Notes: generated by a model from the sequence alone, not told the origin. A stretch of DNA of 24,937 bases from an archaeon (GCA_043806035.1 JAZDHK010000034.1:1-24937); one strand, 5' to 3'; shown: positions 1,593 to 23,635, counted from the first letter of the stretch. Numbers and translations: made by a program.

Positions 1593-1594
1593 GC

Positions 1595-1984: not shown

Positions 1985-2057
1985 GCACGATCACCCCTGC
2001 AAGAAAAATACCCTGTACTATAAAAGCCTTTCTAAAATGTCCATTCTTGAGTGAGAA

Positions 2058-2582: not shown

Positions 2583-2626
2583 GCTACACCCCAACAGCAT
2601 TTCTTGAGAAGGAGAAGTATTTAAAG

Positions 2627-3652: not shown

Positions 3653-3908
3653 GTCCTGGAGAGATTGTGCGTATTTATAAAATGTGTGCGCAGCATATCG
3701 TGGGCATGTTGTTGGCTTGTTTTTGGAAAGCATGTGTTTTGCTTATTTTGGATGGAATATTTTTTCTTAATCATTCGGTGATGAAAAGGAATATTTTTCT
3801 AGAACCACTATTGAATGGTTACAAAATAGATATGTTTTTAAATGCGGGTGCATTTCCCTCCTTACAACGATGCACGTATGTGCATTCATAGTGAAGGAGG
3901 AGTGAATC

Positions 3909-4133
3909 ATGACTACAAGAGCAAGTGGATTGGAAAAGACAGTGGGTGGCATGTACAATACATTGCCTAAGCCCCTGAAGCATGCAACGAATGCAGGACT
4001 CTATGGCGCTGCGGGTGCAGTGATATGTGGTCTTCTGCCCATTGTTACCGTGCCTATTGGCCTGATTGCTGGTGTTGGATTGTATGGTTACAAGACCTAT
4101 TCCAAATACAAGTCCAACAAGTCAAGGAAGTAA
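3909..4133 (+). CDS. Small two-TM membrane protein (paralog of 14279-14521)
   Basis: GGAGGAGTGA SD; hydrophobic Gly-rich helices with a basic tail; followed by a terminator. Confidence 0.8.
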   Translation: MTTRASGLEKTVGGMYNTLPKPLKHATNAGLYGAAGAVICGLLPIVTVPIGLIAGVGLYGYKTYSKYKSNKSRK

Positions 4134-4147
4134 GTTGCGCAAGATCT

Positions 4148-4202
4148 GCTGAGTAGTTGATGCTCAGTTATTTTTTTTTCTTTTCTTGTTCTGTTTTTTT
4201 TA
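4148..4202 (+). terminator. Hairpin plus poly-T terminator
   Basis: CTGAG..CTCAG stem (4149-4167) followed by long T-tracts. Confidence 0.65.
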
Positions 4203-4277
4203 TTGTTCTATCTGTGTGTTTGTCAAAGCGGACTGTTTCTGCAGTATGTTCTGGAATGATCCTTCCGTAGTATCTTG

Positions 4278-4293
4278 CCGAAACATTTAAATA
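4278..4293 (+). promoter_or_regulatory. Archaeal BRE/TATA promoter of the six-gene operon
   Basis: CCGAAACATTTAAATA; identical to 19145-19160. Confidence 0.65.
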
Positions 4294-4386
4294 TACTAGA
4301 TAATTCCTCTAAAGTAGTAACTTGATTATGTCATCATTATCGAGTTACAAATGTGGGTAATAGGATATTGTGAAGGAGGAAGGAAT

Positions 4387-5190
4387 ATGGCCTTATCGTT
4401 GAAAGATAAACTTACAGCAGGCAGAGCAGTCCTTAAGAAGAAAGTCACGGAAGCAAAAAGCAGTGCTGACAAGAGCATCACCGTCCAGACAGTCTTGGGT
4501 GCGGCTGACGGAGCATTCAGTGCATTGAAAAGAAAAGTAACTGATTATTCTGAACAAGCAACGGACTATCTCGAGACAAAAGCTGCAGAGGGCAGCGGTA
4601 TTGCACAGGCCGTCCTTGCAGGAAAGCAGCGAGTGGAAGCATTCACCACTGACATCAGGGAACGCTACCAAATCCTGCTCAATGAAACCAGTCCGTTGCG
4701 CATTCTCGTGCCAGGCTATGACGATATTGCAGCATTGCTCGATCAGGAACAGAAGACTGAGAGTGAGCAATCATACACGAAGAACCAGGACGGTCTCATC
4801 CTGCGCCTTGAAAAGACCATGAAGAAAGGAATGCTCGTGAACGGCGGCAGACTGCAGATTACTACAGAAAAGGAAACCGAAAACTTCGTAACGGCCTGTA
4901 ACGTAAGCATGAATTACTTGCCAAGACACGACAGGGACTATGTCTCGCTCTTTCACGCGCTTGCCAAGAATGCATTGACAGTCGTCCAGGATGAGTTCGG
5001 CATGGACGTCCAGCAAAAGACAACGACAGCGACATCCTATGCTGGACAGCGGTCAACGTTCATTCTCGTCGAGGACGTTCAATATCCGTACAAGCTCGAG
5101 ACGAATTTTGAGAACAGCGAATTCAAGATTGCCTACACGCCGAAAGGCGAAGGCATGACCTTTACAATAACAGGACAGGTGAAAGCATGA
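4387..5190 (+). CDS. Hypothetical protein with an amphipathic helical N-terminal half (operon gene 1)
   Basis: GGAGG SD before ATG 4387; ATGA overlap with the next gene. Confidence 0.8.
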   Translation: MALSLKDKLTAGRAVLKKKVTEAKSSADKSITVQTVLGAADGAFSALKRKVTDYSEQATDYLETKAAEGSGIAQAVLAGKQRVEAFTTDIRERYQILLNETSPLRILVPGYDDIAALLDQEQKTESEQSYTKNQDGLILRLEKTMKKGMLVNGGRLQITTEKETENFVTACNVSMNYLPRHDRDYVSLFHALAKNALTVVQDEFGMDVQQKTTTATSYAGQRSTFILVEDVQYPYKLETNFENSEFKIAYTPKGEGMTFTITGQVKA

Positions 5191-6437
5191 GCAAAGAAAA
5201 AGACGAGAAAACATTGGCAGTCTACACGCCTATAGGGTCGAAAACCACTCTCCAGCGTATGCAGAACTATGATCAAGTGAAAGAATCACAACATAACGTC
5301 GAGGAACGGATGGATCTCCTTCAGGAAGCACTCACCATCAGAGAACAAGAGGCAGTCCATGCAGCATACGGAAACATACCCCCACTCGTCACTTTTGGGA
5401 CAGGACTCGTTACGCTGAATAAGGACAAGATGCGCGTCGGATGGAAGCTTATGCGCGGCAAAGGCATAGCACTGAGTGACATCCTCCGCGACCAGTACAG
5501 AAACCTCGTCGAGAAGGCAGACAATCTTACTGATGAAGTGACAAAAAAAGACGAGCAGAAAAGAGAAATAAACGGCAAAATCAACACACTCTATACGGAC
5601 AGGGGGACGATATACAAAGGCATGGGTGCACTTAATGATGCGCTAGAAACGTGCCAACAGGAACTGGATACACTGCGTGCCCAGAAAGCTGAGGAAGACG
5701 CAAAAGAAGTCGCTGACTTTGGTGTCATCCACCAGTACGAAGAGGATATACGCAATAAAGAGCAAGAGTTCGTCCAACACCAGATTGAACGGGAAGTCAA
5801 GATTGCCGACGCCAACACCAAGGGAGAGACCATAGAGATCCTCACCGTGTTCGAAAAGCAGATTGATGCGCAACGACCTCTGCTCTACGGTCTGCAGAAA
5901 CGGGCGCAAGCAAGAGTGGAGCAAGCGGACACCATCATCGAGATTGAGGCAAGGAACCTCAACACGGCAGAGGCAGTCATTGCATTCACGACAGAATTCA
6001 GGCAGACGCGTGAAGTGCTCGGCTTCGCAGGAAAAGTGAACGCCTACTTCAACCAGAACCTGGACAGGGTACTTGACTACGTGAGCAATACGCCCATCGT
6101 TGATGAGAAGGATCTTGCCATCCGCGTGCAGAGCATAGGCACGATGCGAGAAGCAGCAAAGAATTACCTGACTGGCTGCAGTACGGAAGGGCAACTGCTC
6201 CTGCACGAATGCTACGAACGACTAGCCTTGCCGTTTGGCGCTTCAGAAGAGGAAATCGATGCGCGATGTGCCGTCATTGAACGGAACTCGAATGAAGAAA
6301 GGAAGATTGAAGCACGGCTTGCGGTAGGAACACTGCGTTCATTGAACAGTCTTGCAAAAGGCCAAGACGACCTCTTACGAACGGAATACAAGGCGTTGAC
6401 GGCAGGAAAACCAGCAGAAGAAGATGCAGCGGAGTGA
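5187..6437 (+). CDS. Long coiled-coil protein with a C-terminal degenerate J-domain-like segment (operon gene 2)
   Basis: E/K/Q-rich heptad pattern across the middle; CYERLALPFGASEEEI near the C-terminus with no HPD motif. Confidence 0.8.
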   Translation: MSKEKDEKTLAVYTPIGSKTTLQRMQNYDQVKESQHNVEERMDLLQEALTIREQEAVHAAYGNIPPLVTFGTGLVTLNKDKMRVGWKLMRGKGIALSDILRDQYRNLVEKADNLTDEVTKKDEQKREINGKINTLYTDRGTIYKGMGALNDALETCQQELDTLRAQKAEEDAKEVADFGVIHQYEEDIRNKEQEFVQHQIEREVKIADANTKGETIEILTVFEKQIDAQRPLLYGLQKRAQARVEQADTIIEIEARNLNTAEAVIAFTTEFRQTREVLGFAGKVNAYFNQNLDRVLDYVSNTPIVDEKDLAIRVQSIGTMREAAKNYLTGCSTEGQLLLHECYERLALPFGASEEEIDARCAVIERNSNEERKIEARLAVGTLRSLNSLAKGQDDLLRTEYKALTAGKPAEEDAAE

Positions 6438-7396: not shown

Positions 7397-8697
7397 CCTA
7401 TGCACATCCTGAAGAAAAGAAGGAATTGTACAGGCAGACACTTGCAGCGCTGCTCGATACGCAGCCGTTCGTCGCATCCTATCCGACATCGACGGACTGC
7501 CAACAGCACGATGTATTCGGCATGCCTCCCGACATGCACCCGCCATCACATGCACTGCTGGTATCGCGTAAACAACTACAGGATATCATCACGCGCAAGC
7601 CGAACACGGCAATCTCCTTTTTTGGAGAGATGCTTCACGAGCTTTGCGTGAAGAACCAACGGCTGCTCAATCTCGTGCTCGACACGGACATCGTTGTCGC
7701 CTCCTGCTCTGCATACGCAAAAAGCCAGAAAAATGACCCTTCTGCAATCGATGTGCTTGCTCTCATTGAAGGGCACTATCAGCCCTTGGCTCAGACACCA
7801 GTAACGAAGGACGTGGACTGGGAACTGTCCTGTGCGCTCTCCAGCCCGACGCTGGACACGATGCGGCTCGTGCTTGCAGGCGAGGAAAAAATCAGGGCAG
7901 AGCCAGATGCGCTTCTCAGAAACCTCGTGGGTGAATTGCAGGCAAGCTATGCCCCGCTCTTTGCACGATTTGGTGACATCAGGGCATATGAGCCTTTGCT
8001 TGAACTGAACAATACAACTCCAGAACCATTCACCTACGCGCTTCCTGGACAAACCTACGTGGTTGTGCCCCATGAAGGATTCTTTGTTGTAACGCTCATA
8101 GAAACTGAACAAGAGCTGTCATATCCATTCCTCTCAACAAAAGAGGGAAAAACCATCGTGGATAGAATGTTCGATGCAGGCTATTTGCGCGTCAACATAC
8201 CTTTTTGCGAAAAGAACATCCATGCGGTTGAGAAACGGGAAATCATGCACTTTTCCTCAACACGTGAAAAAGAAATCCTGCCCGAGGACAAGGAATACAT
8301 TGCACGGCTGAAACAGAAGCAGCCCACCAGCACGTTCGAGCATATACGATTCATACGAAAATACCTCCAAAAATCGCTTGCCGACAATAAGGACTGGACT
8401 GAACTCAGGGATGTCATGTACGATGGAAAGAAGGTCCGTTACTTCCCCCTTTCCTTAGAACTACTATTCGTGGAAAGCATAGGACATCCTGCAGTGAACG
8501 CAATAGTGGAAAGCCTGCACGCGTACGATCCGTTCCTGCACCAACAGAACGATCCTGAAGGGTTCATAGAAGCGTACAAGGACAGCAATTGGACGGAGAG
8601 AAGCAACAGGGCATTCTATCTGAGAACGATGATGCGGGCGGGCAAGCACCTCGCGCCTGAAGTCCATGGCTTCCTCAAGAAGGAGGGACGACTATGA
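7393..8697 (+). CDS. Hypothetical protein, possibly a distant DUF6638-like protein (operon gene 4)
   Basis: ATGA overlaps at both ends. The family resemblance is from memory only and unverified. Confidence 0.75.
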   Translation: MTYAHPEEKKELYRQTLAALLDTQPFVASYPTSTDCQQHDVFGMPPDMHPPSHALLVSRKQLQDIITRKPNTAISFFGEMLHELCVKNQRLLNLVLDTDIVVASCSAYAKSQKNDPSAIDVLALIEGHYQPLAQTPVTKDVDWELSCALSSPTLDTMRLVLAGEEKIRAEPDALLRNLVGELQASYAPLFARFGDIRAYEPLLELNNTTPEPFTYALPGQTYVVVPHEGFFVVTLIETEQELSYPFLSTKEGKTIVDRMFDAGYLRVNIPFCEKNIHAVEKREIMHFSSTREKEILPEDKEYIARLKQKQPTSTFEHIRFIRKYLQKSLADNKDWTELRDVMYDGKKVRYFPLSLELLFVESIGHPAVNAIVESLHAYDPFLHQQNDPEGFIEAYKDSNWTERSNRAFYLRTMMRAGKHLAPEVHGFLKKEGRL

Positions 8698-11072
8698 ACG
8701 ACATCAGCAAACTCCTTCTCGAATACGCACACACCCATCTTGACACGGTCTCGGAGCAAGAATGGGATGTGCGGGCTGAACTTCTTGATGATAAGCAACT
8801 CAAGAAAGTCGTGCTTGATAAGGTTGTCAGCAAGTATGATTCTCCGGCAAAACCCATTTCGCAATTGCAGGGTGTTGTCAAACGCCTTAATCCTCACGAG
8901 TATGATGACTTGAGGGAAGCGCTGGACGATATCGTCATGAGCATTAATGACTATTATGGCTATACGCAGGCATCAGGGAAAAAACCGCCGATGACCGTGG
9001 CACCAGTCATGACGATTGAGGAACGGCAACAAAAGGCGCTCGATGAGATGGAAAGCAGACGCATACGGAAAGTGATTGCGGCATTGGAACAGATGAAAGG
9101 CCAGTTTGATAATTCAGAGATGTACATTCGTGAACTCATCCAGAACGCCGTCGATGCGGGCAGCACGCGCATTGACGTACGCATGCGGTATGATGATGCT
9201 AAGAAGAAGGCCATCGTCAGCGTCAATGACAACGGCTGTGGCATGAACCTTGACAAGATCAGGGGCAAGCTGCTGACCTTGTTCGAGTCAGACAAGGAAG
9301 GAGATATAACAAAAATTGGCAGGTTTGGCATTGGCTTTGTCTCCGTCTTCGCCCAGAAAGGGCTAGAGCAGGTAGTAGTGCACACTTCTGATGGAACTGC
9401 AGAACACGTAGTGAAATTGCTCCCTCCTGCGCTCGGCTGGAAGGGTGAAATTTACGAATCAGGAAAGACGCGGGAGAAAGGGACGGAAGTCATCATCGAG
9501 GCATGCATCGGCAAGGAACACTACCTGGACCTCAGGAAAGGGCTGGTCAACGAGATCGGCAATTCGAGCGCATACATCACCACACCCTTGTACGTGAACA
9601 ACCACAAGATGAACAGAGAATTCAGAATTCCTCATGCAAAAGTGCAGTTTCACTTCGGCGGTGGCTCCGACCTTGAAGGCATACTTGCCATCACGCCACC
9701 AGAGATAAAAAACGGGAACACCATAGACAAAACATTCTATGCCATCTTTAATAGGAGGCTGTGCATCGCCAGGGAGAACAGGCCTTTGTTCGATGATGAA
9801 CCTGACCTCTCTATCATGTTGAGCTCATCGCATATTGACTACACCATCTCTAGAGATGCAATCATTGAGAACACGCGCTATAAGCAGATCCTGCGCCTGC
9901 TCAAGGAGAAGAAAGACCAATTGCATCACATCATCGCAAAATCGATAGCGACAGAAGAACAATTCAAGGTGGGTATTCCTCCCAAGGATGGAAAGGCGAG
10001 GTTCTGGTCATCCTCACCATCCGGCGAGTATGGTGCAGTTCCCGCGTATGCAGATGAACACAGAAAACAGCCCGTGTTTTTCAATGACAGTGAACGATTG
10101 CATTTCTGCGGTGACGAAGCATTATTTGACAAGTTGACCGAGTACATCAAGAAGAAGATAGCCCAGAAGAGGGAGCCCCTCTTGCGACGCATGAAGCATT
10201 TCTTTATGCGGAAGAATGGGACTGCCAGAATTCTCGAGCGGTTGCCTCGTGAGCTTCGGCATGAGAAGATACTCACGGGTATAGTCTATTTACCACAAGA
10301 GGATCGTGTTGGGTTTAAGCGGTATTCCCTCGCAGAGGTACTGGATCAGGCGGAGAAGGAGCATTGCGTGCTTTACACGTATGTCAGTCATCAACGCTAT
10401 ATTGAGTCTGTGGCTAAAGCCCTGCTCGATCGGGGAAAGATTCTGCTTGTCAACTTTGAGAAACATGATCCCCAGAAACGGCTGCTTGAGCTTTTCAGCA
10501 CGTATCAGGAAGTTCGCAGCAAGTATTCGTTGCCGAACTATGAGGATGTAGAGAAGCTGTCGCCCGCTGAGCGGACATTCATCACCGAACTGGATAGTAT
10601 CATCCAGAAGAGTCCGCTGAAAAAACACGTTGCGTACACGGTGATGGGCACGAAGCAGGATGTCCATAAGCAGAATGATGTGCCGTTGTACTTCTCCTCG
10701 AATGTTCTTGAAAAGGGATGGGGCAAGCGCCTGTTTGGCGTCAAGAGAACGTTCTATGAGCGGACAAAAGATGTGCTCATGGGGAAGGAGAAAGTCGTGC
10801 TGACGAGAAATCATGAGTTTGTCGAACGATGCGTCGCCCTCTCTCAGGACAGCATGTGGTCGTTCCTGCCGTATGTTGCGGTCATGACCGGCATCGCCTA
10901 TAAGCTGGCACACATGCACAGCGCTCTGCCCAAGGATATGCTGCAGTTCATCATGCAGGAGTATGGTGAGCAGCTCAAAGGCAAAGAAGTGGACATGGAG
11001 GCATTCATGTCGCAGTACAAGCGAGATGAGGCCTTTACCAGAACAACCGAGGTGCTGGTCGATGAACGATGA
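8694..11072 (+). CDS. GHKL (Hsp90/MutL/MORC-like) ATPase (operon gene 5)
   Basis: N box YIRELIQNAVDA, G1 DNGCGM, G2 KIGRFGIGFVSVF, G3 GTEV, followed by a transducer-like region (TISRDAII). Confidence 0.9.
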   Translation: MNDISKLLLEYAHTHLDTVSEQEWDVRAELLDDKQLKKVVLDKVVSKYDSPAKPISQLQGVVKRLNPHEYDDLREALDDIVMSINDYYGYTQASGKKPPMTVAPVMTIEERQQKALDEMESRRIRKVIAALEQMKGQFDNSEMYIRELIQNAVDAGSTRIDVRMRYDDAKKKAIVSVNDNGCGMNLDKIRGKLLTLFESDKEGDITKIGRFGIGFVSVFAQKGLEQVVVHTSDGTAEHVVKLLPPALGWKGEIYESGKTREKGTEVIIEACIGKEHYLDLRKGLVNEIGNSSAYITTPLYVNNHKMNREFRIPHAKVQFHFGGGSDLEGILAITPPEIKNGNTIDKTFYAIFNRRLCIARENRPLFDDEPDLSIMLSSSHIDYTISRDAIIENTRYKQILRLLKEKKDQLHHIIAKSIATEEQFKVGIPPKDGKARFWSSSPSGEYGAVPAYADEHRKQPVFFNDSERLHFCGDEALFDKLTEYIKKKIAQKREPLLRRMKHFFMRKNGTARILERLPRELRHEKILTGIVYLPQEDRVGFKRYSLAEVLDQAEKEHCVLYTYVSHQRYIESVAKALLDRGKILLVNFEKHDPQKRLLELFSTYQEVRSKYSLPNYEDVEKLSPAERTFITELDSIIQKSPLKKHVAYTVMGTKQDVHKQNDVPLYFSSNVLEKGWGKRLFGVKRTFYERTKDVLMGKEKVVLTRNHEFVERCVALSQDSMWSFLPYVAVMTGIAYKLAHMHSALPKDMLQFIMQEYGEQLKGKEVDMEAFMSQYKRDEAFTRTTEVLVDER

Positions 11073-14000
11073 GCAGTTGCGCCAAGTGACGGATGGCACG
11101 GAATTCATATGGGACATGAATCAGGAGAAGATGCAGCTCAAGACAACCACGAGCCTCCTCTCCGACCCTGTTGACTACGTCCTAGAATTCTTCTCACTCC
11201 TCCATAATTCGAATCCATCTGCCATACGTATCAAGACACACGCGTCTTCATTGGAAATGCTGGCTGATGGGGAAGGCTTGGACATGCAGGACATTACCGA
11301 GCTCTCCTCAACATTCTTCGTTTCTGAACAAGACAGTTCGCTCATGAAGAAATATGGTGGAATGACGCGGGCTGTGTATTCTGCCATGCATCTCAACACG
11401 GAAAAAGTCGTCATCGAGAGCAGAAAGCACAATGTTCCGCTTAAGTATACCTTCTCAAAGCTCTCGCCCAAAAAAATGTCCAAGGAAGAGCGTTTGAAAT
11501 CTGTCAGGTTCGGTGAGCATAATGTGAATTTCAAGCACGAGCAGCAGTCGAATGTCAAAGGAGGCATAAGGATAACTGTAGCAAAACAAGGCAAGGGTTT
11601 CTTCAGCAGGCTTAGCAGGGATAAGACTCCAGAGTATAGAAAGCTCATGGAGCGCTGCAGGAATTCAACCATTCCCGTCTATATCAATGGCAGGAAGATA
11701 AACATCGAACAGGAGGACTATGTCAAGAGGTCACTGTTCCACGGGGCATTGTTCAGGGAAACGAACGATCTGCCCTATCAGCACACGATAACGGATGATG
11801 GCCTGTCTGCGAAGATCTGGCTAGAGAGCAGGATTCCGAAAGGATTCATCAACCTGCTGAAGTCAGGCGTGTACTATCCTCAGGAAGAATTACTTCCCTC
11901 GGTTCCCTATCTTTGCGTGAACCTTGACTCGTTGGAATTCGTTGTCAGCCTGGGCAAGAAGAAGACAATCGCGAATTATGAAGGTGTTGTGCGAGAAGTT
12001 GGGAGAAACCTTCGCCCGCTCTTCGAACAAGTGCTGAATGGATATACGGAGAAGCTGCAACGGGAGTTTTACACCAGTAGCGCAGTCTCGCATCGGGAAG
12101 TCATAGCTAGGATGCTGCTCGACTTGAGCGAAAGTGACATTGCATCACTCTCTTCGGGCGATGCAACGCCGTATGTGAAAAAGTTGGTTTCAGCGAAAGT
12201 TTTCAGCATGAGCGAATACAACAAATCCGCATCGTTGGAGGATCTCCTTCACGAACCAGTTGTCGTTACAGTGCAGAACCGTCTTTTTTCACAGCATGAC
12301 TTTAACGTGTATGTTGCCGATGAATCGTTGGTTGCCGTGCTGCATAAATTCGGCCTGCGTACGAAGGATCTTTCGGCAATTCAGAAGGAGGAAATCCAGC
12401 GTACTCGTGAAGAATTAAATAGGATAAAAGAGGAGGAACGTCTCGCTAGCATGTCTGTCCATCAGCAACAGAACGCTATTGTTGGCGGCTACTTGGCAAA
12501 GCTCTTCGGGAAAAAGAATGCCATAACCCTTGATGAAGTGGTGCGCGTGGGCACATCCTCTTTGCGAGGGGCGTCATTGGTTGCGAGCGCAGTCATTGCT
12601 TCGCCGCTCCTCCTTGGTGGGGCGGCAGCCTATCATACAGTGAGATATGCTGGAAAAGCAGCTTTGCTTGCGCTGGTGACGGGTGTTGCTCTGGTAGGAG
12701 GAGCGGCAAAAATTAGCTATAAGGGAGTGGAGTGGACGGTGAAGAAGCCGCTGCGTGCCACCTGCAATGGTGTGGGGACGGGCATCGGTGCGGTGTATCA
12801 TGGAGTCCAGCGTTTCTATCATAATCATTTGTACAAGCCATTGCGTGCGACAGGTCGCGGCATAGCTGTGGGCGTTGGCACTGTCGCTACGGGTATAGGT
12901 GTCGGTGTTGGTGCTTTCTTCACTGGTATAGGTTATGTGCTCTATCACGCAGGCAAAGGCACGTGGGTGGCAACGAAGTATACGGCAGAACATACGGGTC
13001 GTGCTGCAGGCGCGACGAGGAGCGGCATTGCGCGGCTCGCGGGAAACATTTCTGATTACGTGAGTTCTACCTATCAGACGTGGAAATTGCAACGTGAGAC
13101 AAAACGTCACGCGCCCGAGGCAGTTCTCAAGAGGGATCAGCGTGATGAGCTGCGGAAGGCACAATATGCATTGAAGCAGAAAGCAAGAGATCAACGGAAA
13201 GCAGCACGTGAGCAAAAAGAGGAAGACAGAAAACAAAGCAAGGAAGAAAAGAAAAAGAGAAAGTATGAGGCGCATCAGGAAGAATACAGGCAAGATGTCG
13301 AAAACACCTTACGTGCAAGTCAGAAGATGGCGCACGCCATCCACTATCTCGCAGGTCACACCGATTTGTTCCAGTATCTCATCAATCACTCCTTGAATGA
13401 CACTTCACTTTTGGAATTCAAAATCCTCTGCCCGCGGGATTATCTCAGCGAATACAGCACGAAACTGGACAGTCTCGTTCTGCGACATCTGACAAAAAGG
13501 AAAGGCATTTTCTTCAACGTGCCGAAGTTCGACAGGAATCATCTTGGCATTGTTCACCAGTACGTGCACAAGTCAGTGAAGCCGTACGAGGCTCCGCTCA
13601 TTCCCTTTATTGATAAACGGCACTCAAACGATGAGAAGCGAACGCTCTCGCCCATGTTGACGATTGATGGACGTATTGACAAGCAGAACACGCTTGCGGA
13701 TGCACTCGGGTACGTTCCCGGACTGTATGCGCTTGCTCCGTACGTGTTTGCCTTTGCCGAAATGCCAGATGGCGTGTGGATTTCTGATGTGCAGCCGACA
13801 ACAACGTCATATTGGGATGAGCACAGGAATCTGATGGCGAGGACAGCCATCAAGTTTCTCAATCCGAACAAGCCCTACACGTCAGATGTGATTTCATTCT
13901 ATGATGCCATGTTCAAACGCATCCTCGAGGCAAAAGTCATTGATACGGTCGAGGCATACCAGCACGGCGATGAGAAACGCTTCAAGGAACTCTTCCCGCT

Positions 14001-14130
14001 CCTGGACAAGAAAGAAGTGCGAGATGTCGTGACACGACTATTGCAGGAACAGAAGCATTATCCTGCCCTTGACGATTATGTCGAGACGGCACAACCGCAG
14101 TTGGTGAATGAGCTCGGCAGGACGACATAG
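11062..14130 (+). CDS. Degenerate GHKL paralog with a central Gly-rich hydrophobic region and charged coiled coil (operon gene 6)
   Basis: GAGGTG SD before ATG 11062. DYVLEFFSLLHNS / ADGEGL / KKYGGM / GIRITV / IPVYINGRKIN are colinear with the gene 5 motifs. Confidence 0.8.
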   Translation: MNDEQLRQVTDGTEFIWDMNQEKMQLKTTTSLLSDPVDYVLEFFSLLHNSNPSAIRIKTHASSLEMLADGEGLDMQDITELSSTFFVSEQDSSLMKKYGGMTRAVYSAMHLNTEKVVIESRKHNVPLKYTFSKLSPKKMSKEERLKSVRFGEHNVNFKHEQQSNVKGGIRITVAKQGKGFFSRLSRDKTPEYRKLMERCRNSTIPVYINGRKINIEQEDYVKRSLFHGALFRETNDLPYQHTITDDGLSAKIWLESRIPKGFINLLKSGVYYPQEELLPSVPYLCVNLDSLEFVVSLGKKKTIANYEGVVREVGRNLRPLFEQVLNGYTEKLQREFYTSSAVSHREVIARMLLDLSESDIASLSSGDATPYVKKLVSAKVFSMSEYNKSASLEDLLHEPVVVTVQNRLFSQHDFNVYVADESLVAVLHKFGLRTKDLSAIQKEEIQRTREELNRIKEEERLASMSVHQQQNAIVGGYLAKLFGKKNAITLDEVVRVGTSSLRGASLVASAVIASPLLLGGAAAYHTVRYAGKAALLALVTGVALVGGAAKISYKGVEWTVKKPLRATCNGVGTGIGAVYHGVQRFYHNHLYKPLRATGRGIAVGVGTVATGIGVGVGAFFTGIGYVLYHAGKGTWVATKYTAEHTGRAAGATRSGIARLAGNISDYVSSTYQTWKLQRETKRHAPEAVLKRDQRDELRKAQYALKQKARDQRKAAREQKEEDRKQSKEEKKKRKYEAHQEEYRQDVENTLRASQKMAHAIHYLAGHTDLFQYLINHSLNDTSLLEFKILCPRDYLSEYSTKLDSLVLRHLTKRKGIFFNVPKFDRNHLGIVHQYVHKSVKPYEAPLIPFIDKRHSNDEKRTLSPMLTIDGRIDKQNTLADALGYVPGLYALAPYVFAFAEMPDGVWISDVQPTTTSYWDEHRNLMARTAIKFLNPNKPYTSDVISFYDAMFKRILEAKVIDTVEAYQHGDEKRFKELFPLLDKKEVRDVVTRLLQEQKHYPALDDYVETAQPQLVNELGRTT

Positions 14131-14278
14131 CAAACCCTAAAGTCTCGATATGTTCATAAATTGCCGAAAAAGCAATGTGAGAATGTGCAGAATGCGGCAA
14201 TTCTCCTGAAAAGCATTTAAAGAGGTGTACGTTGTATGTTTCTTACGTAACTACTACCACGATGTGGGGGAGGAAAAC

Positions 14279-14521
14279 ATGGATCTAGAAACGAAGGCAA
14301 ACGAATGGTATACCAATGTCCTGACATCAAAAGTGGCAAAGAATGCACTTCTGTATGCGGGTGTCGGCGGGGTCGGCAGCTTCTTTTTTGACAGCGTCGG
14401 CTTCCTCGGAGGAGCACTCCTCGGATCAGGCATCTACGTTGTTGGCAAGTGCATCAAGGAATACCGTGCGCACAACAGGACTACTGACAACCAGGTCAAT
14501 GACACGACACACACGGGCTAG
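14279..14521 (+). CDS. Small two-TM membrane protein (paralog of 3909-4133)
   Basis: GGGGAGG SD before ATG 14279; TTTAAA box at about 14216; Gly-rich hydrophobic helices. Confidence 0.75.
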   Translation: MDLETKANEWYTNVLTSKVAKNALLYAGVGGVGSFFFDSVGFLGGALLGSGIYVVGKCIKEYRAHNRTTDNQVNDTTHTG

Positions 14522-16845
14522 AACAGCTTGAAGAAGCTCAGCTGTTGGATAATGTCAGCGCCGCTGCCATGCGTCAGCATTATGCTGGGAAACGCATCGA
14601 AGAGGTTGTTGATATAGCCGAACTTGAACAGGGCAATGCACCAGATGATGATGAGTGCGGCAATGCCATAGGCGAACGTGAACAGCAATTGTTTTCTTAT
14701 CTTTTCTTCAAGCAAGCCGTACGTCTTGAACAGGAACAGCAAGGAGAGGCAGAACAGTACGTAGAGGGAGAGAGCAAAAAACATGCTCAGATAATTTTGC
14801 TTGAACACGATGTCGTGCAGCATAAACCATAGCCTGTCGGGTATGAGTTTGAAGACGAACACGTTCAAGAACAGGACGAAGAACGTGATGAACAGCATGA
14901 TGAGATGGGTGAAGAGCTTGCTCTTCTGCCTAAAGAATACCAGCCGCACGAGGACAAGCCATATGAGGAAGATGACCACGAGCAGGCAGCCGATGATGAC
15001 ATCATTCCTGGACATGAATGCCAACGGGCTTGATAGTGTTGCACCGATGAACACGGCGATGATTGCCCGATCTGTAACGGGATAGAGGGAAAGGATGCGC
15101 AGCAGGATAAGCACGGCAACGAGGGCAAATGCCAGCGTCGAAGTGATGAGCAGGAGCTGCCGTTGCTTATACCTCTCGACGCGCTCGATGAACTGGTATG
15201 CATCACTGAAGTCCATGCTCGGCAATGCCTCGTCCTTGCCATATTCGTGCTCGAGCTGCATGGCGAGGCTTTTTGCTTCTGCAGCGGTGGCCTGAGCGGC
15301 GAGTAAGTAGTTCTCGTCCTTTTTCTTGATGAACTCGTAGTAGGAGAGGAAGGCCAGCTTATACTTTGCAAGGAAGGAAAGCGTTTTTTCCTGATAGTCG
15401 AGGCTTTGCCGGATGAATGGTGTTGATGTGCCGTTCAGGATGGCTTGTTTGTGCATCATGAATCTGTCCAACGCAGCGTTCGTCCGTGAGGCTTCTTCGC
15501 TGACATTTTTTACTTGCAGATAAACGTGCACGAGTGCAAAGTGCGCATCCATCGGCCTGTCCCACCAGAGCCATAATAGTGTGGGGAGGGGAACGTTTCT
15601 CACGCGTGACGGTCGTTCCGCATACGCCTTGACGTACAGGATGTCCTGAATAATGGTATGACTGTCCTTGACGAATGCAAAGAGCGCGTCTGCTGCGCCT
15701 GTCGATTGCAAATTTTCTTGCAGTGCACGGTCCGTGTCATACGCTGGATTGTGCACGATTAGGGGAAATACAGCACTGTTCAGTTCTGTCCAGAAACCTG
15801 CAGGGGTGTCTGGTTGGTTGTTTGCCCTGTCCCATCCGCCGAAGTGCGTCCACACGTACACGCCAGCAAAATTCTTCCTCGTTGTGTAGTCTGCAAGGAG
15901 GTCCTTGTTGCTGTCCACGAGATAGTTCGTCAAGGAGCCATAGCCTTCGTATTCTCGCCTGAGTTGGAATTCTACGAGTTGCTGCACGGATCCTCTGCCG
16001 AGCAGCCGTTCTTTTGGGAGGAAGCTGAAGAAGTCGCCTTCACCGTTTTTTATGGACGTGATGAGATGGCTCGTGTTGTACGTTCTGAATATGTTGTCGT
16101 ACTTGTCGGGATTGTACATGAGATCCCCTATTTTTCCTATGCCCACTGTCCAGGTTCTGAAGATGAGCGTCTTGTTGTGCTTTTTTGCGAGGGGCAGGAG
16201 GGTGTCGATGAGCCTGCTGATGTCCTGCTCCGTTGTGTAGCTCAGCACGGACGTGTACTCTGCCGATGAGGTGTAGAATTGCCCTCCTTCTCCTATCCTG
16301 ATGATGATGCCAGACAGGCGCGGCATGCTCGTGCATACTTCTTCGAGTGCTGCCTTGTTCAGCTGCATGAGCCGTTCGTTCTCTGCGGAGAAATCATGTC
16401 TGACAAATGCACTGATGAATGAATCCGTGAATTGGTAGTCTGACGTGAGGTAGAAGCTGGCATTTTCCAGCTCTGGCGTTCGCATGATGTCGTTGAAGAA
16501 TGTCTTGTATGCCTCTGCCCTGATGACATAGCTGCTGTTTACGGGATAGACGTCGATGCTTGGCAGGGAGATGACCCGTTGCATGTCTCCAATGACGAAT
16601 GCATTGTATCCTTCTGCAAGCCGGTGCTTTGCGTATGCAATGAACCGTTCTTTGGCCACTGCTAATTTTGCTGTATCAACGTATGGTTGGCTAGTGGTGT
16701 CGTACTGGTGGTAGGGAAAGATGTTCCACGAATCTTTTTCTTTCGCATCAAGGTAGAATGTCCCGCCGGGATCCGTCATGATGAGTTGCGCTTGTGCTGC
16801 ACTCAAGATGACAAGCAGGGTGAGAAGGAGCAGCCAGGCCTTCAT
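14518..16845 (-). CDS. Secreted glycoside-hydrolase-like catalytic domain (GH67-like barrel?) with a C-terminal multi-pass membrane anchor
   Basis: Signal peptide MKAWLLLLTLLVILSAAQA; GIIIRIGEGG, LIFRTW and VEFQLRREYEGYG motifs; about 6 TM helices in the last 210 aa. Confidence 0.6.
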   Translation of the reverse strand: MKAWLLLLTLLVILSAAQAQLIMTDPGGTFYLDAKEKDSWNIFPYHQYDTTSQPYVDTAKLAVAKERFIAYAKHRLAEGYNAFVIGDMQRVISLPSIDVYPVNSSYVIRAEAYKTFFNDIMRTPELENASFYLTSDYQFTDSFISAFVRHDFSAENERLMQLNKAALEEVCTSMPRLSGIIIRIGEGGQFYTSSAEYTSVLSYTTEQDISRLIDTLLPLAKKHNKTLIFRTWTVGIGKIGDLMYNPDKYDNIFRTYNTSHLITSIKNGEGDFFSFLPKERLLGRGSVQQLVEFQLRREYEGYGSLTNYLVDSNKDLLADYTTRKNFAGVYVWTHFGGWDRANNQPDTPAGFWTELNSAVFPLIVHNPAYDTDRALQENLQSTGAADALFAFVKDSHTIIQDILYVKAYAERPSRVRNVPLPTLLWLWWDRPMDAHFALVHVYLQVKNVSEEASRTNAALDRFMMHKQAILNGTSTPFIRQSLDYQEKTLSFLAKYKLAFLSYYEFIKKKDENYLLAAQATAAEAKSLAMQLEHEYGKDEALPSMDFSDAYQFIERVERYKQRQLLLITSTLAFALVAVLILLRILSLYPVTDRAIIAVFIGATLSSPLAFMSRNDVIIGCLLVVIFLIWLVLVRLVFFRQKSKLFTHLIMLFITFFVLFLNVFVFKLIPDRLWFMLHDIVFKQNYLSMFFALSLYVLFCLSLLFLFKTYGLLEEKIRKQLLFTFAYGIAALIIIWCIALFKFGYINNLFDAFPSIMLTHGSGADIIQQLSFFKLF

Positions 16846-19205: not shown

Positions 19206-20060
19206 ATGTTAACCTTTGAAAAAGAAGTTCGTGTCGTAAAAGATGTTCAAGGACAGGAATTTTACGCAAACAACATTCCAGATGCTCTAGAAGCAGCGCT
19301 GAAAGCTGCGGCAGGCGGCGGCTATGTGGCAAGCTTCCCGCAACTCGTACATGCACGCCTTATCACAGAGAACGGCAGCGATCCTATTTGGCAGAAGTGG
19401 TGGACGGCAAACGGCAGCGAGAATGTAGGCAAAACCAAGCAGGGAAAACCTGTCGTTCTGACTATTAATGGACAGCTGCCCTCGCCTGACAGAATAAGGC
19501 AAGCGCTTCGCGAAGGGCTCATTGGCGGACGCATGCAACATACAGACGAAGAGTTCCAGTATATGCTCACTGACCCTAATGTTCCTGAGCTGTCATACAA
19601 AGAAGTAAAAGAGGGTAAGAACCTTCCTATACTCTACAGGGTCGTCACAGATTTCAATGAAGAAGCAAAACTGCCCTCAGGCTACGAACCTATAGACAGA
19701 TGGAGAGGCAACCAACGCTTCATTATCAGAGCTGGCGGAGAAGAGAAGGCTAACCAGATCCTAGATAGAAGTGCACAGGTGTACAATACAAAGAAGTATG
19801 GAAATTGGACATTTTTCAAAGACGCTAACCCAGATAAGCCTCAGGGGCTTGTGCCTGTCCTTGGCGACGGCGGCGACTACGGCTTCGATGGCAGCTTCCT
19901 CGGCAGCAACGTGCGGTTTGGTGGGGTAGCGCCGGAGGCGCTCGTGGCGCGCGAAAAATTCGCACCTACTCTTGAGCAGATATCCGATGCTATGACTGAT
20001 CTTATAGCACCAAAGAATATGGATCTTGTGCAGGAGCGCTTGCGCCAGTTATACAAATAA
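19206..20060 (+). CDS. DGR variable (target) protein, putative C-type-lectin-like fold
   Basis: Contains the VR encoding GLVPVLGDGGDYGFDGSFLGSNVRFGGV; no signal peptide. The fold is inferred from characterised DGR targets. Confidence 0.9.
   Translation: MLTFEKEVRVVKDVQGQEFYANNIPDALEAALKAAAGGGYVASFPQLVHARLITENGSDPIWQKWWTANGSENVGKTKQGKPVVLTINGQLPSPDRIRQALREGLIGGRMQHTDEEFQYMLTDPNVPELSYKEVKEGKNLPILYRVVTDFNEEAKLPSGYEPIDRWRGNQRFIIRAGGEEKANQILDRSAQVYNTKKYGNWTFFKDANPDKPQGLVPVLGDGGDYGFDGSFLGSNVRFGGVAPEALVAREKFAPTLEQISDAMTDLIAPKNMDLVQERLRQLYK
19844..19929 (+). repeat. DGR variable region (VR)
   Basis: 86 nt aligning to TR with 15 substitutions at TR adenines (12 A>G, 3 A>T), one C>T and one 3-nt gap. 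Confidence 0.95.
19928..19942 (+). promoter_or_regulatory. DGR target-recognition hairpin 3' of VR
   Basis: AGCGCC-GGA-GGCGCT; absent downstream of TR. Confidence 0.8.
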
Positions 20061-20063
20061 GTA

Positions 20064-20095
20064 ACTTTTTTATACTTCTTCTTTTTATTTTCCTC
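20064..20095 (+). terminator. T-rich archaeal terminator after the target gene
   Basis: CTTTTTTATACTTCTTCTTTTTATTTTCCTCT directly after the stop codon. Confidence 0.55.
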
Positions 20096-20099
20096 TCGT

Positions 20100-20282
20100 C
20101 CCAGCTACAGCATCTAAACGGGTGCTGAGAGAGTAGCTTGGAACTACACGCTCGTTCACTACGGCAAAACTCTCATTTTGCCATAAAATACAGCCTCAAC
20201 AGCGATGAAGGGGCAGTGAACGCCGAGAATTAACGTTCTCGACCCTGAACAGTGATTCAGGAAAGTGAACGCGCTACTGTGC
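20100..20282 (+). ncRNA. Putative structured 5' leader of the DGR template RNA
   Basis: At least five stems plus a long-range 8-bp pairing in about 180 nt with no credible ORF. Confidence 0.55.
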
Positions 20283-20371
20283 GGGGCTTGTGCCTGTCCT
20301 TGGCAACAACGACAACAACGGCTTCAATGGCAACAACAACCTCAACAACAACGCGCGGTTTGGTGGAATAG
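20283..20371 (+). repeat. DGR template region (TR)
   Basis: 89 nt with 11 AAC/AAT codons in the VR frame and 26 adenines; ends 40 nt upstream of the RT start. Confidence 0.95.
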
Positions 20372-20411
20372 TCAGGCTATTAAACGCTGGGACACTTTTC
20401 TTTTCTCGAAC

Positions 20412-22082
20412 ATGGCTACCGACGAGGATATGTTTACTCGGCTATGTTCTTACACTAATCTTGAACTCGCTTTTCAAAAAGCGCGAAGAGGAAAGACTCT
20501 CAAATCATATGTTATAGACTATGAAGCCAATCTGAAAGAGAACTTGCTCAAATTAAGAAACGAGTTATTGTTGCTCACGTATCGCCCATTACCTCTTAAG
20601 ACATTCATTCTCCACGATCCAAAAACGAGAAAGATTAGCAAATCCGACTTCCGCGACAGAGTCATCCATCATGCAGTGTGTAACATTATCGAGCCTCTCT
20701 TTGATAAGACGTTTATTTATGACAGCCACGCTAACCGGCTGGGCAAAGGAACATTCAAAGCAATAATACGCTACGAGCAATTTGCGCGGCAAGTATCAAA
20801 AAACAACACGAGAACTGTCTTTGTGCTTAAGGTAGACGTCAAACATTATTTCGACACTGTTGACCACAAGATGCTCATGCAGATACTTGCAAGGAGAATA
20901 AGTGATGAACGGGTCTTGTGGCTTATTGGTGTTATTCTTGCCAATCATCACACGACAGAGGAAGGGAAGGGCATGCCGCTTGGTAATCTGACGAGTCAAT
21001 TCTTCGCTAATGTTTATCTCAACGAGCTTGATCAATTCGTGAAGCATGAACTCAGGGCAAAATACTACATTCGGTATGTTGATGATTTTGTCATCATGCA
21101 CACATCACAAAAAGTGCTTGATGAGTATAAGCGAAGAATTGATGACTTTCTGAACGATCATCTTGCTGTTGCATTGCATCCTGACAAGTCAAAAGTCATT
21201 CCACTTGTGCAGGGCGTGGTCTTCTTAGGCTTTAAAATCCATCCTTACCATAAGCGAGTGAGAGATAAGAATGTGCGCAAGTTCGAGAGAAAACTTGCAG
21301 ATCATGCAGCATCATGTGCTCAAGGGATGATTACAAGAGAGCAGGCGGTCGAGTGTTTTGAAGGATGGCTTGCCTACATCGCTCACGCCAACACGTACAA
21401 ATATCGTCGAGCAATCACAAGACGATTTAACGCGCTCTTTCCCATTGAGCCCATGCAACCGCTTGAGCATGTGAAGAAACATGAGCGTAATATACGACGC
21501 GCAGAAATTGCAGAGAACCAATTCACGACACAGAAAACATTACTGCTCTACAGAAAGGGATTGACCATCAAGCAGATTGCGGAACAGCGAGGCATCAAAG
21601 AATCTACGGTATGGCAACATTTCGCCAGTCTTATTGAGCATCATCAACTGTCCGTCTGGCAGTTGCTCGCTAAAGAGAAAATCATCAAGATACTGCATCA
21701 CATCCAATCTGAGCAGGACAGGCTTAAAGACATCAAAGAACGTCTCAACGACGCAACAATAACCTATGATGAACTGGCTTGCGTTCTTGCATTCGTGAAA
21801 AGAAAGAATAAGAAGAGCAACATCTGCTTTCTTGCAAACTGGTATCAGCACAATTACTGTTATCGAAAATGCCCACTATCGCAGCGTCGAGTATGCAAAT
21901 TCAAATTTGATGAGTTTATCAGGAAAAATCCGACGCTGGAGATGAGAAGAAAGGAATTTCTCGGCCTGTTCAATGTGTACATGACTATTTGCATATTATC
22001 TGATGCAAAGAAACGAGAATATGTCTCGTGGATTGAGTTCAGGCAGAGGCTCACTTCAGTTTCAAGAAATCGCTCGGCGTAA
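20412..22082 (+). CDS. DGR reverse transcriptase with C-terminal HTH and Cys-rich extension (556 aa)
   Basis: FRDRVIHHA, KVDVKHYFDTVDH, GMPLGNLTSQFFAN (DGR-type GxxxSQ), YIRYVDDF, FLGF; then TLLLYRKGLTIKQIAEQRGIKESTVWQH. Confidence 0.93.
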   Translation: MATDEDMFTRLCSYTNLELAFQKARRGKTLKSYVIDYEANLKENLLKLRNELLLLTYRPLPLKTFILHDPKTRKISKSDFRDRVIHHAVCNIIEPLFDKTFIYDSHANRLGKGTFKAIIRYEQFARQVSKNNTRTVFVLKVDVKHYFDTVDHKMLMQILARRISDERVLWLIGVILANHHTTEEGKGMPLGNLTSQFFANVYLNELDQFVKHELRAKYYIRYVDDFVIMHTSQKVLDEYKRRIDDFLNDHLAVALHPDKSKVIPLVQGVVFLGFKIHPYHKRVRDKNVRKFERKLADHAASCAQGMITREQAVECFEGWLAYIAHANTYKYRRAITRRFNALFPIEPMQPLEHVKKHERNIRRAEIAENQFTTQKTLLLYRKGLTIKQIAEQRGIKESTVWQHFASLIEHHQLSVWQLLAKEKIIKILHHIQSEQDRLKDIKERLNDATITYDELACVLAFVKRKNKKSNICFLANWYQHNYCYRKCPLSQRRVCKFKFDEFIRKNPTLEMRRKEFLGLFNVYMTICILSDAKKREYVSWIEFRQRLTSVSRNRSA

Positions 22083-22461
22083 GAACACGAATGCCCTCAA
22101 ACACCTTAAGTTTGAGCAGATGCTGGTCTTGTGAGATGATGCAATCAGCATTCGCTGCTTTGGCACATTCAAGAAAAATGTTGTCAGATGGGTCGTCGGT
22201 GATAACATTCACTTTCTGAGCGGGTTCGACGAGCGTCGCCAGTTCCACGATTTTCTGGAAAGAGTTACGAACCTCAAGATGCTTGTTTTTCACCTTATCT
22301 TTGATCTCTTTGTAATCGAGCACTCTTGAGAATTCGTCAAGAATGTCTTTTGAGACGAAGAGTTCGTGCTTTTTCTCCTCGATCAGTTTCACTATTCTAA
22401 ACGAGTCGCCATACCAGAACGTAGCCGAAAGCAAAACATTGGTGTCCAGAACCAGTTTCAT
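22051..22461 (-). CDS. PIN-domain (VapC-like) toxin
   Basis: MKLVLDTNVLLSA, ILDEF, DDPSDNIFLECA, IISQDQHLL; ATGA-coupled to the antitoxin. Confidence 0.92.
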   Translation of the reverse strand: MKLVLDTNVLLSATFWYGDSFRIVKLIEEKKHELFVSKDILDEFSRVLDYKEIKDKVKNKHLEVRNSFQKIVELATLVEPAQKVNVITDDPSDNIFLECAKAANADCIISQDQHLLKLKVFEGIRVLTPSDFLKLK

Positions 22462-22715
22462 CGTGATTTCCTGAACTTGTGCACCATGTCGGGAATGTCT
22501 GATTCTTTCATGCCTGTCTTTTTCATCTCTTCTTTGAGCGGCTTTGTTATCTGCTCAAATGTTTGAGACGTTACGCGTTTCATGATGAGCGCGTCGTTGC
22601 TAAGCATGAAGAGCACCTTGCTGCCTTCCTCAAGACCCATGCTGTCTCTGATGTTGTTCGGAATGCATACCTGTCCTCTGGAGCTGACCGTTCCCATTTC
22701 AATCATATCGTCCAT
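22458..22715 (-). CDS. AbrB/MazE/SpoVT-family antitoxin
   Basis: VSSRGQVCIPNNIRDSMGLEEGSKVLF; GAGGTGA SD. Confidence 0.92.
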   Translation of the reverse strand: MDDMIEMGTVSSRGQVCIPNNIRDSMGLEEGSKVLFMLSNDALIMKRVTSQTFEQITKPLKEEMKKTGMKESDIPDMVHKFRKSR

Positions 22716-23045: not shown

Positions 23046-23080
23046 AATCATGGAAGCTAAAAGGGTATGAGGTGAAAAAC

Positions 23081-23635
23081 ATGGTATGGACTTACAAACG
23101 TGAACCCTTAGAAGATAACGAAGCCGACTTGCTCAGAAGAAACTGCAAAAGCTTTGAGGAAGAGCTTGTGATTAACGTGCTCCTTGATACGGGCATGAGA
23201 GTGAGCGAGCTTGCCCACCTCGAAGAGCAGAACGTGGCCTGGCAACGCAGTTGCATCAACCTTACAGGCAAAGGCGGTAGACGACGCGTCATTCCCATGA
23301 GCAATCTGGTGGGCTTCTATCTGACGCACACGTTTAGCAAGCAATCGAGGGTGCCGTTAGCTATTCGTACTATTGAGAAGTACGTCAAGGTTGTGGCAGA
23401 GCGCGCGCGGCTCAAGAAGAAGGTTAGCCCGCACATCTTACGACACACCTTCGCCGTCATGTACCTGCACCGTGGCGGCAATCTTCGAGCGTTGCAATCA
23501 ATTCTGGGGCACAGCAGCATAACCACAACAGACATTTACTTGAACTATTCTGGCAAACGGGTGATTGAGGATTTTCAGAAAGTGTGGCAGCAAAAGGAGG
23601 TCGGCAACGCGAGCTTGAAGCAGTTTTTCCCATGA
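23081..23635 (+). CDS. Tyrosine recombinase (Xer/integrase family), catalytic domain only
   Basis: TGMRVSEL, GKGG, HILRHTFA, LGHSS and TTDIY give an intact R-K-H-R-H-Y set; a GAGGTGA SD favours ATG 23081 (alternative GTG 23072). Confidence 0.92.
   Translation: MVWTYKREPLEDNEADLLRRNCKSFEEELVINVLLDTGMRVSELAHLEEQNVAWQRSCINLTGKGGRRRVIPMSNLVGFYLTHTFSKQSRVPLAIRTIEKYVKVVAERARLKKKVSPHILRHTFAVMYLHRGGNLRALQSILGHSSITTTDIYLNYSGKRVIEDFQKVWQQKEVGNASLKQFFP

Follow-up and report, generated by a model that had tools for sequence, protein, structure and literature searches.

An RT-16 RNA as the probable template-RNA scaffold of an Avd-less archaeal DGR

The leader that separates the target gene from the TR in an archaeal DGR belongs to the Rfam RNA family RT-16, and we put at roughly 0.8 the probability that a dedicated transcript (RT-16, TR, a short spacer and the RT mRNA) of an Avd-less DGR of the Nanoarchaeota/DUSEL4 type has RT-16 as its structured 5' half, where RT-16 would act as a scaffold that positions the template end for putative priming from upstream. 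Judged from its sequence and those of its relatives, the RT-16 stretch is very probably the scaffold of the template RNA, and analogy with known systems suggests that priming probably occurs from upstream of the template in a retron-like manner. In the survey by Wu et al. (2018, PMC5758913), about a quarter of DGRs are without Avd, and how such elements prime and bound reverse transcription is the question addressed here. DGRs of this kind are also present among the tiny archaea of our sample, in which 35 of 151 genomes have RT-16. The stretch of DNA that was analysed (24,937 nt; GCA_043806035.1 JAZDHK010000034.1:1-24937; hereafter the window) together with 30 related loci yields a base-pair-level, testable model for the RNA of an Avd-independent DGR. 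To our knowledge, the sole structural model of a DGR is that of the Avd-dependent Bordetella phage system. The analysis also points to a likely function for the orphan Rfam motif RT-16, and for RT-11, and a system of one RT and one RNA of ~300 nt would be a compact candidate for targeted-mutagenesis tools.

A complete Nanoarchaeota-type DGR

The window contains a complete Nanoarchaeota-type DGR, with target gene, VR, TR and RT ORF all on the plus strand:

19206..20060, plus strand: target gene, AvpA-type variable protein of 284 aa (ORF call; phmmer)
19844..19929, plus strand: VR, ending in the IMH TGGGGT (19922-27) plus AG (TR/VR comparison)
19928..19942, plus strand: GC hairpin AGCGCC-GGA-GGCGCT with a GRA trinucleotide loop, directly 3' of the VR and within the target gene (sequence)
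20283..20371, plus strand: TR, ending in the IMH* TGGAAT (20364-69) plus AG (TR/VR comparison)
20412..22082, plus strand: DGR reverse transcriptase of 556 aa (RVT_1 1.8e-22; HTH_40 4.7e-19; LGNLTSQ and YVDD motifs)

The target protein was matched to AvpA (PDB 5ioo) over residues 14-284 with a phmmer E of 1.9e-19, and the gap between the target stop codon and the TR is 222 nt. Comparison of the VR with the TR revealed 15 substitutions at TR adenines (the fixed AA>GG included), one at a non-adenine position and one 3-nt gap, and the differences are thus concentrated at TR adenines, as is characteristic of a DGR. The VR is 3 nt, or one AAC-type unit, shorter than the TR, and at the single non-adenine difference a C of the TR (in GCGCGG) is a T in the VR (in GTGCGG). 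RTs of the DGR clade carry the signature [LIV]GxxxSQ together with YxDD, and the window RT contains both, as LGNLTSQ and YVDD, in addition to its RVT_1 match at 1.8e-22. The C-terminus of this RT (window 21480-22082, residues about 357-556) comprises an HTH_40 domain and a Cys-rich tail. Full-length matches were confined to the closest clade (G140, G053, G129, G083, G094 and G137), while the remaining RT-16-linked RTs are of ~340-430 aa and the extension is matched by a separate ORF in a few genomes.

In the upstream flanks of loci L003, L006, L010, L016, L022, L027, L029 and L031, an A-run and next a TATA-like box often come after the GC hairpin that adjoins the VR, all within ~40 nt, suggesting that the target-gene end, a likely terminator and the template-RNA promoter are tightly packed.

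An archaeal Kae1 encoded in the window (TIGR03722, 409 bits versus a cut-off of 375) places the 1.5-Mb genome among the archaea. Abutting the RT stop codon are genes for a PIN-domain toxin (22051-22461, minus strand) and an AbrB/MazE-type antitoxin (22458-22715, minus strand), after which a phage-integrase-family gene follows (23072-23635, plus strand), and the DGR may lie on or beside a mobile island. On the other side, a GHKL/sacsin-like ATPase of 792 aa is succeeded by ORFs of 1055 and 775 aa without a family match (8694-16845), and an HNH-repeat protein is encoded at 2058-2636; this region could be a defence or mobile-element neighbourhood. The same genome carries a second DGR on the minus strand of contig C1 (about 1526-5240; locus L002), with an RT-16 copy at 2730-2919 (58.4 bits), a TR at about 2632-2731, a VR ~2.4 kb upstream at about 5180-5240, and an RT homologue with an in-frame TAG.

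The leader is a full-length RT-16 RNA

The initial annotation of this DNA described a highly structured non-coding leader at the place where avd would normally sit, and interpreted it as an RNA scaffold or switch of an Avd-independent DGR. All of the inverted repeats and octamers on which that description was based were recovered at the coordinates it gave:

20103-08 and 20133-38, plus strand: AGCTAC and GTAGCT, around CAGCATC (20108-14) and GGTGCTG (20121-27)
20153-60, plus strand: octamer CGTTCACT
20163-69 and 20176-82, plus strand: GGCAAAA and TTTTGCC
20215-22 and 20264-71, plus strand: two copies of octamer AGTGAACG
20224-29 and 20236-41, plus strand: CGAGAA and TTCTCG
20244-49 and 20256-61, plus strand: CCTGAA and TTCAGG

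A 230-nt RNA of the plus strand folded at -71.4 kcal/mol, versus -55.2 ± 4.2 kcal/mol for 200 dinucleotide shuffles (z -3.88; none as good), and for the full RNA (20096-20411) z was -5.44 (0/100 shuffles). The minus strand likewise folds well (z -3.04), as expected for the complement of a structured stretch. The longest ORF within 20061-20282 is of 31 aa, in agreement with the non-coding nature claimed for the leader.

Positions 20099-20282 (plus strand) were matched by the Rfam model of RT-16 RNA (RF03019) over model positions 1-158 of 158, with 61.1 bits against a gathering score of 50 (E 8.4e-09 in a 901-nt search), and this was the sole match above threshold in an Rfam scan of the window. 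With a full-length match above the gathering score, covariation in P2 and P4, and an adjoining RT gene whose ORF starts 130 nt 3' of the motif, the leader belongs to RF03019; RT-16 has been an Rfam family since 2017, and the leader is not an uncatalogued element. The window copy shares with the family the conserved strings CUACACGC, AUAAAAUACAG, UGAAG, GCAGUGA and GCUAC, as well as the covarying helices P2 and P4 and the adjacent RT gene, but differs from it in a minimal P4 arm and a 40-nt insert with two hairpins. The Rfam model, for its part, is without the P3 hairpin and both long-range helices described below, and its P1 competes with the latter. The window sequence is an ordinary member of RT-16 and of a published archaeal DGR type.

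The motifs RT-1 to RT-19 were described as lying near RT genes, with no function assigned; in the available text of that study a DGR connection is made for RT-10 alone, which is the TR-RT spacer of phage BPP-1, and a role in retrons or DGRs was a speculation of the authors for other RT motifs (Weinberg et al. 2017, PMC5737381). As far as the available text goes, a JAR3D paper lists for RF03019 only a weak sarcin-ricin-like loop match (PMC13085918). In the literature searched for RT-16/RF03019 as a DGR template RNA, which did not include the supplement of Weinberg et al. 2017 that may bear on novelty, no paper making this assignment was found. The RT-11 model (RF03106) also matches RT-16 sites (e.g. 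G133:C67, G123:C6, G011:C8 and G068:C17), at scores below its gathering score (best 114 bits versus 143.5), and RT-11 shares core strings with RT-16; the two models seem to describe a single RNA superfamily that is located upstream of the TR.

The core helices of RT-16 covary

The sample comprised 151 genomes of the same phylum, 35 of which were found to contain RT-16, at 47 places. Of these places, 31 were examined (at most one per genome, except for G000 with two copies), 30 of them with downstream DNA. The features of the core in the window are as follows:

20108..20127, plus strand: P1 inner hairpin, CAGCAUC / GGUGCUG (MFE folds)
20150..20160, plus strand: P2 5' strand, partner 20264-20274 (97.7% and 94.4% of cells paired for helices 1 and 2; double changes in 9/11 pairs)
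20163..20182, plus strand: P3 hairpin, GGCAAAA/UUUUGCC, conserved in position and outside the Rfam model (73.9% of cells paired; double changes in 7/7 pairs)
20183..20193, plus strand: conserved single-stranded AUAAAAUACAG (invariant columns)
20193..20214, plus strand: P4 (GCCUC/GGGGC; 20193-97 with 20210-14) around a minimal 2-bp arm, CA-GCGA-UG (98.6% of cells paired; double changes in 7/7 pairs)
20215..20272, plus strand: 9-nt direct repeat AGTGAACGC (20215-23 and 20264-72) around a 40-nt insert with two hairpins (20224-41 and 20244-61) (sequence; 35-nt insertion versus the model)
20264..20274, plus strand: P2 3' strand, 9 nt upstream of the TR, a candidate cDNA stop (covariation and MFE fold for the helix)

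The core was assessed in a MAFFT alignment of the 31 sequences (A1), with partners slid by 1-3 columns and 500 shuffles as controls. This revealed that 91.4% of the cells of P2, P3 and P4 are paired, versus 37-50% when slid, and that covariation is 0.727 versus 0.12-0.17, with 0/500 shuffles as high, although support for the outer part of P2 and for P4 is inflated, both being already encoded in the covariance model with which the loci had been retrieved. This caveat does not apply to P3, the inner four P2 pairs, S2:S3 or S1:S4, which are absent from the search model. The core helices thus have support from covariation across the related loci. The inner stem of the Rfam model was also considered; it carries a non-canonical flag in the window, where the P3 hairpin fits better.

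The P4 arm is longer in the relatives than in the window. The insert hairpins at 20224-61, put forward earlier as part of the leader's structure, did not prove to be conserved, as they sit in the 40-nt insert, and the insert site differs in length and sequence among the 31 aligned sequences. The repeat-flanked insert looks like an insertion or duplication event at this variable site of RT-16.

Two long-range helices are predicted to enclose the core and the TR

Beyond the core, the relatives point to two helices that join the leader to the region 3' of the TR, and to a promoter in front of the leader:

20067..20074, plus strand: TATA-like box TTTTTATA, 31 nt before S1 (octamer search)
20098..20105, plus strand: S1 GUCCCAGC, 5' strand of the outer long-range helix and of the Rfam P1 hairpin (duplex energies, MFE fold)
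20132..20146, plus strand: S2 (AGUAGCUUGG), an AA bulge and the CUA of the invariant CUACACG; proposed primer strand (covariation)
20369..20381, plus strand: UAG of the IMH* region and S3 (UCAGGCUAUU, 20372-81), which pairs with CUA plus S2 (covariation, MFE fold)
20386..20393, plus strand: S4 GCUGGGAC, which pairs with S1 and ends 19 nt before the RT start codon (duplex energies, MFE fold)

A box in the TR-RT spacer, CURGGACA, is complementary to a strand that coincides with the RT-16 start or lies immediately 5' of it. Cognate S1:S4 duplexes had an energy of -14.8 kcal/mol versus -10.8 kcal/mol for non-cognate ones (0/20000 permutations; 29 loci, L028 and L030 dropped), where the positions of S1 and S4 were chosen by a helix search and only the permutation tests control for this choice. 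Scoring by the longest contiguous helix gave the same outcome (0/20000 permutations; 28 loci), with an automatic IMH* pick that was wrong for about six loci, which added noise and kept the signal. Compensatory variants of S1/S4 include GUCCUAG/CUAGGAC, GUCUCAGC/GCUGAGAC, UCCCAACUU/AAGUUGGGA and UGUCCCUGCC/GGCAGGGACA.

For the inner helix, S2:S3, in which S2 is the 3' strand of the Rfam P1, the corresponding energies were -11.1 and -8.0 kcal/mol (0/20000 permutations; 23 loci). In a further alignment (A3), whose ends were anchored solely on two bases, the invariant A in CUACACG and the U in GGAAU, 79.7% of the cells of the ten pairs outward from A:U were paired versus 30-43% when slid, covariation was 0.571 versus 0.09-0.21 (0/500 shuffles), and double-sided changes were seen in 9/10 pairs of S2-CUA:UAG-S3. 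Beside the invariant A, 21 loci have U:A, 7 have C:G and 1 has G:C, so that this pair is Watson-Crick in 29/29. The covariation of S2-CUA with UAG-S3 indicates base pairs between the CUA of CUACACG and the UAG of GGAAUAG, which lies directly 3' of the two TR adenines that are fixed as GG in every VR. Both A20146 and A20148 are invariant in 31/31 sequences. A point against the duplex is a 2-nt bulge that alters its register in the clade closest to the window.

The full-length MFE fold of the window RNA contains S1:S4, the P1 inner hairpin, S2:S3 and P2. Among the MFE folds of 21 relatives, S2:S3 (at least 5 bp) is present in 12 and absent in 9, and the local S1:S2 hairpin occurs in 1; the presence of S1:S4 in 21/21 carries no weight, because the RNA ends were set by the S1:S4 helix. 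Taken together, covariation, duplex energies and folding predict that S1:S4 and S2:S3 are nested helices that enclose the core and the TR. Two other pairings were considered. A local hairpin of AAUAG (20367-71) and CUAUU (20377-81) was dropped as the primer duplex since most relatives have only 2-10 nt between IMH* and S4 and S2:S3 is favoured in the full-length MFE fold. A helix between GGGCUA, the 3' tail of RT-16, and UAGCCC at the TR end found no consistent support by eye and would compete with P2.

A search for the best TATA-like octamer over the 70 nt that precede S1 placed it uniquely 26-32 nt upstream in 13/20 loci, tied with other positions in 4 and elsewhere in 3. With the usual archaeal spacing between TATA box and transcription start, the transcript of the window is predicted to begin at about 20096-20100, at S1.

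A transcript with this start would place the leader in the 5' UTR of the RT mRNA, with S4 ending shortly before the start codon, and the leader could then be a regulator of the RT gene only, through control of translation or stability or as a ligand switch, with no part in cDNA synthesis. The pairing of S1 with either S2 or S4, both of them cognate-specific, would permit a toggle of this kind. However, the leader RNA shows covarying base pairs with the IMH* end of the TR and abuts the TR in 27/30 loci; a translation regulator has no need to enclose a template, and the Rfam scan returned no match of the leader to a ligand-binding family. We consider a purely regulatory leader unlikely and retain the template-RNA scaffold as the preferred reading.

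The alternative pairing of P2 is not a family feature

The initial annotation proposed that CGTTCACT pairs with either of the two AGTGAACG copies, which would allow the leader to alternate between two folds and so gate RT recruitment. Both pairings are possible in the window, where copy 1 offers 8 bp and copy 2 offers 10 bp and one mismatch, the isolated 230-nt MFE fold pairs CGTTCACT with copy 1, and the copy-1 duplex, at -11.7 kcal/mol, is among the strongest in the family. Across the relatives, however, the conserved P2 uses the second copy only. The P2 5' strand and the second-copy site gave -15.5 kcal/mol for cognate versus -7.0 kcal/mol for non-cognate pairs (0/20000 permutations), in contrast to -5.29 versus -4.82 kcal/mol (1065/20000 permutations; 31 sequences) for the first-copy site after P4, a weak and barely cognate-specific pairing. 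Moreover, the full-length MFE fold pairs CGTTCACT with copy 2, copy 1 overlaps the conserved GCAGUGA motif, and copy 2 comes after the 40-nt insert at the variable site. A switch between the two copies is thus very improbable. What stands of the earlier proposal is, very probably, the scaffold: a structured, non-coding RNA that is a member of RT-16, abuts the TR and covaries with the TR 3' end, in a DGR without a detectable Avd; the switch is not conserved.

RT-16 accompanies DGRs and an Avd was not detected

Homologues of the window RT were found in 34/35 RT-16 genomes, the exception being a motif at a contig end. Seven genomes have an RT homologue and no reported RT-16 match, and several of these homologues are fragments at contig ends. 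A TR/VR pair with adenine-specific differences, the VR upstream and on the same strand, was identified in 27/30 loci with downstream DNA; for L002, L011 and L026 there was no such pair within the flank, and the VR of L002 was found later, 2.4 kb upstream. The TR homology reaches the first base after the RT-16 motif in 21/27 loci.

Many RT motifs have been speculated to be retrons (Weinberg et al. 2017, PMC5737381, in its available text), and the primer-upstream topology that we infer is retron-like, so that RT-16 might be the msr-msd RNA of an element that makes msDNA for defence and not part of a DGR. The RT adjoining it nevertheless bears the DGR signature LGNLTSQ and scores 57 bits against a retron RT model with a cut-off of 235, which leaves it outside the retron RTs; most loci have a cognate VR, as does the window; and the target is an AvpA homologue, with IMH, IMH* and a GRA-loop hairpin that match published archaeal DGRs (PMC4372165, in its available text). 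A retron is thus a highly implausible source of this RNA, and an RNA of a DGR is the reading kept here.

The absence of Avd asserted for the window held: the Avd family PF05635 was not detected in the 22 window ORFs scanned. The same was found genome-wide, where there was no PF05635 match at E<=1 in a genome that is 93.7% complete, and a phylum-specific profile built from six Avd-like proteins reached a best E of 0.32 against the 19,728 six-frame ORFs of the genome. Given this completeness, Avd is likely, and not proven, to be absent from this genome. Among the 151 genomes, 33 encode a PF05635 protein, which occurs together with RT-16 in 8 only and never on the RT-16 contig; 27/35 RT-16 genomes have no PF05635 match. 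The gap between VR and motif is at most 237 nt in 24/27 loci, leaving no room for avd. In the survey of Wu et al. (2018, PMC5758913), as far as its available text shows, avd was present in 74% of 372 DGRs and hence not universal, Architecture A, without an accessory gene, made up 29%, and Avd-independent homing was proposed. An unrecognised protein may play a helper role. That the leader is a decayed avd or another small protein-coding gene, as its position at the avd site of canonical DGRs might suggest, can be dismissed, as its longest ORF is of 31 aa, it gives no PF05635 signal, and its substitutions track base pairs, G-U included, and not codons.

A proposed mechanism for priming and termination

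In the Bordetella system, Sp 47-56 forms a duplex with the 3' part of the TR, and priming starts from the 2'-OH of A56; after a further two nucleotides, Sp 59-70 and the strand immediately upstream of the TR make up the 'cPRT Stop' duplex, and the stem-loop that binds Avd is situated between TR and primer strand, according to the available text of the preprint, whose survey of RNA elements covered 278 Avd-containing DGRs (Handa et al., bioRxiv 10.1101/2023.10.23.563531). By analogy, the S2-CUA:UAG-S3 duplex would be the counterpart of the Bordetella template:primer duplex, and the 2'-OH for priming would come from an invariant adenosine at the end of that duplex (A20146, or A20148). P2, whose 5' strand begins 3 nt (CAC) after the primer strand and whose 3' strand lies 9 nt upstream of the TR, would be the stop duplex that ends the cDNA, and the P3/P4 domain may bind the RT. 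The far end of the duplex would be clamped by S1:S4 in place of an Avd-binding stem-loop, and with no such stem-loop Avd would be unnecessary. The RNA may therefore be viewed as a putative circular permutation of the Bordetella avd-TR-Sp RNA, in which the primer would stand upstream of the template, in the topology of a retron. The priming nucleotide, the stop role of P2 and the binding of the RT are assigned by this analogy and are meant as candidates.

In every VR, a fixed GG stands opposite template A20367/A20368. Initiation of the cDNA at A20368 or A20367 predicts variation in the VR at these positions, yet they are fixed, which suggests that initiation occurs 5' of them or that the first bases are not transferred. 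In the clade of the window, the local P1 (S1:S2) and the long-range pairs compete for strands, and the RNA may toggle between the two conformations. The full proposal, in which RT-16 would be the circularly permuted equivalent of the Bordetella spacer RNA, with priming through the 2'-OH of A20146/A20148, cDNA ended by P2 at the TR 5' edge, Avd unneeded, and a toggle between P1 and S1:S4 plus S2:S3 that divides the RNA between RT messenger and template use, is tentative, and we rate its chances at somewhat below even.

Comparison with known systems

Among the closest known systems are the DUSEL4 Nanoarchaeota DGRs, which have the IMH TGGGGT, the IMH* TGGAAT and a GC hairpin with a GRA loop after the VR (Paul et al. 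2015, PMC4372165, in its available text). The window shares with them IMH and IMH*, the GRA-loop hairpin within the target gene, an AvpA-like target, the order target-TR-RT and an archaeal host, and is a DGR of their type. It differs in the HTH_40/Cys-rich C-terminal extension of its RT, present in its closest clade only, and in the RNA structure upstream of the TR, which the available text of PMC4372165 does not mention. Architecture A/Lineage 3 of Wu et al. (2018, PMC5758913) likewise consists of a TR-RT core without an accessory gene, and the profile search reported there also gave no avd elsewhere in the genomes; unlike the present analysis, the available text of that study describes no RNA element able to replace Avd.

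With retrons, the RT-16 RNA would share a putative priming nucleotide at the end of a duplex and a structured RNA between primer and template. In retron msr-msd RNAs, as in the arrangement proposed here, the primer strand is 5' of the template, and a 5' strand is base-paired to the template region at its 3' end. The window differs from retrons in that its RT is of the DGR clade, its template is a TR with a cognate VR and adenine mutagenesis, and its candidate priming base is an A, where retrons use a G; we know of no msDNA from an RT-16 element.

The Bordetella BPP-1 system differs in that its primer and RT-binding elements are downstream of the TR, whereas in the RT-16 RNA the elements to which we would assign these roles are upstream, and in its Avd; the archaeal spacer between TR and RT is ~40 nt, with no Avd and no room for an Avd-binding stem-loop. 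Both systems nevertheless surround the template with structured RNA, and in both a duplex at the TR 3' end, template:primer in Bordetella and its putative counterpart here, stands beside a second duplex whose strands lie just upstream of the TR and 2-3 nt after the primer strand.
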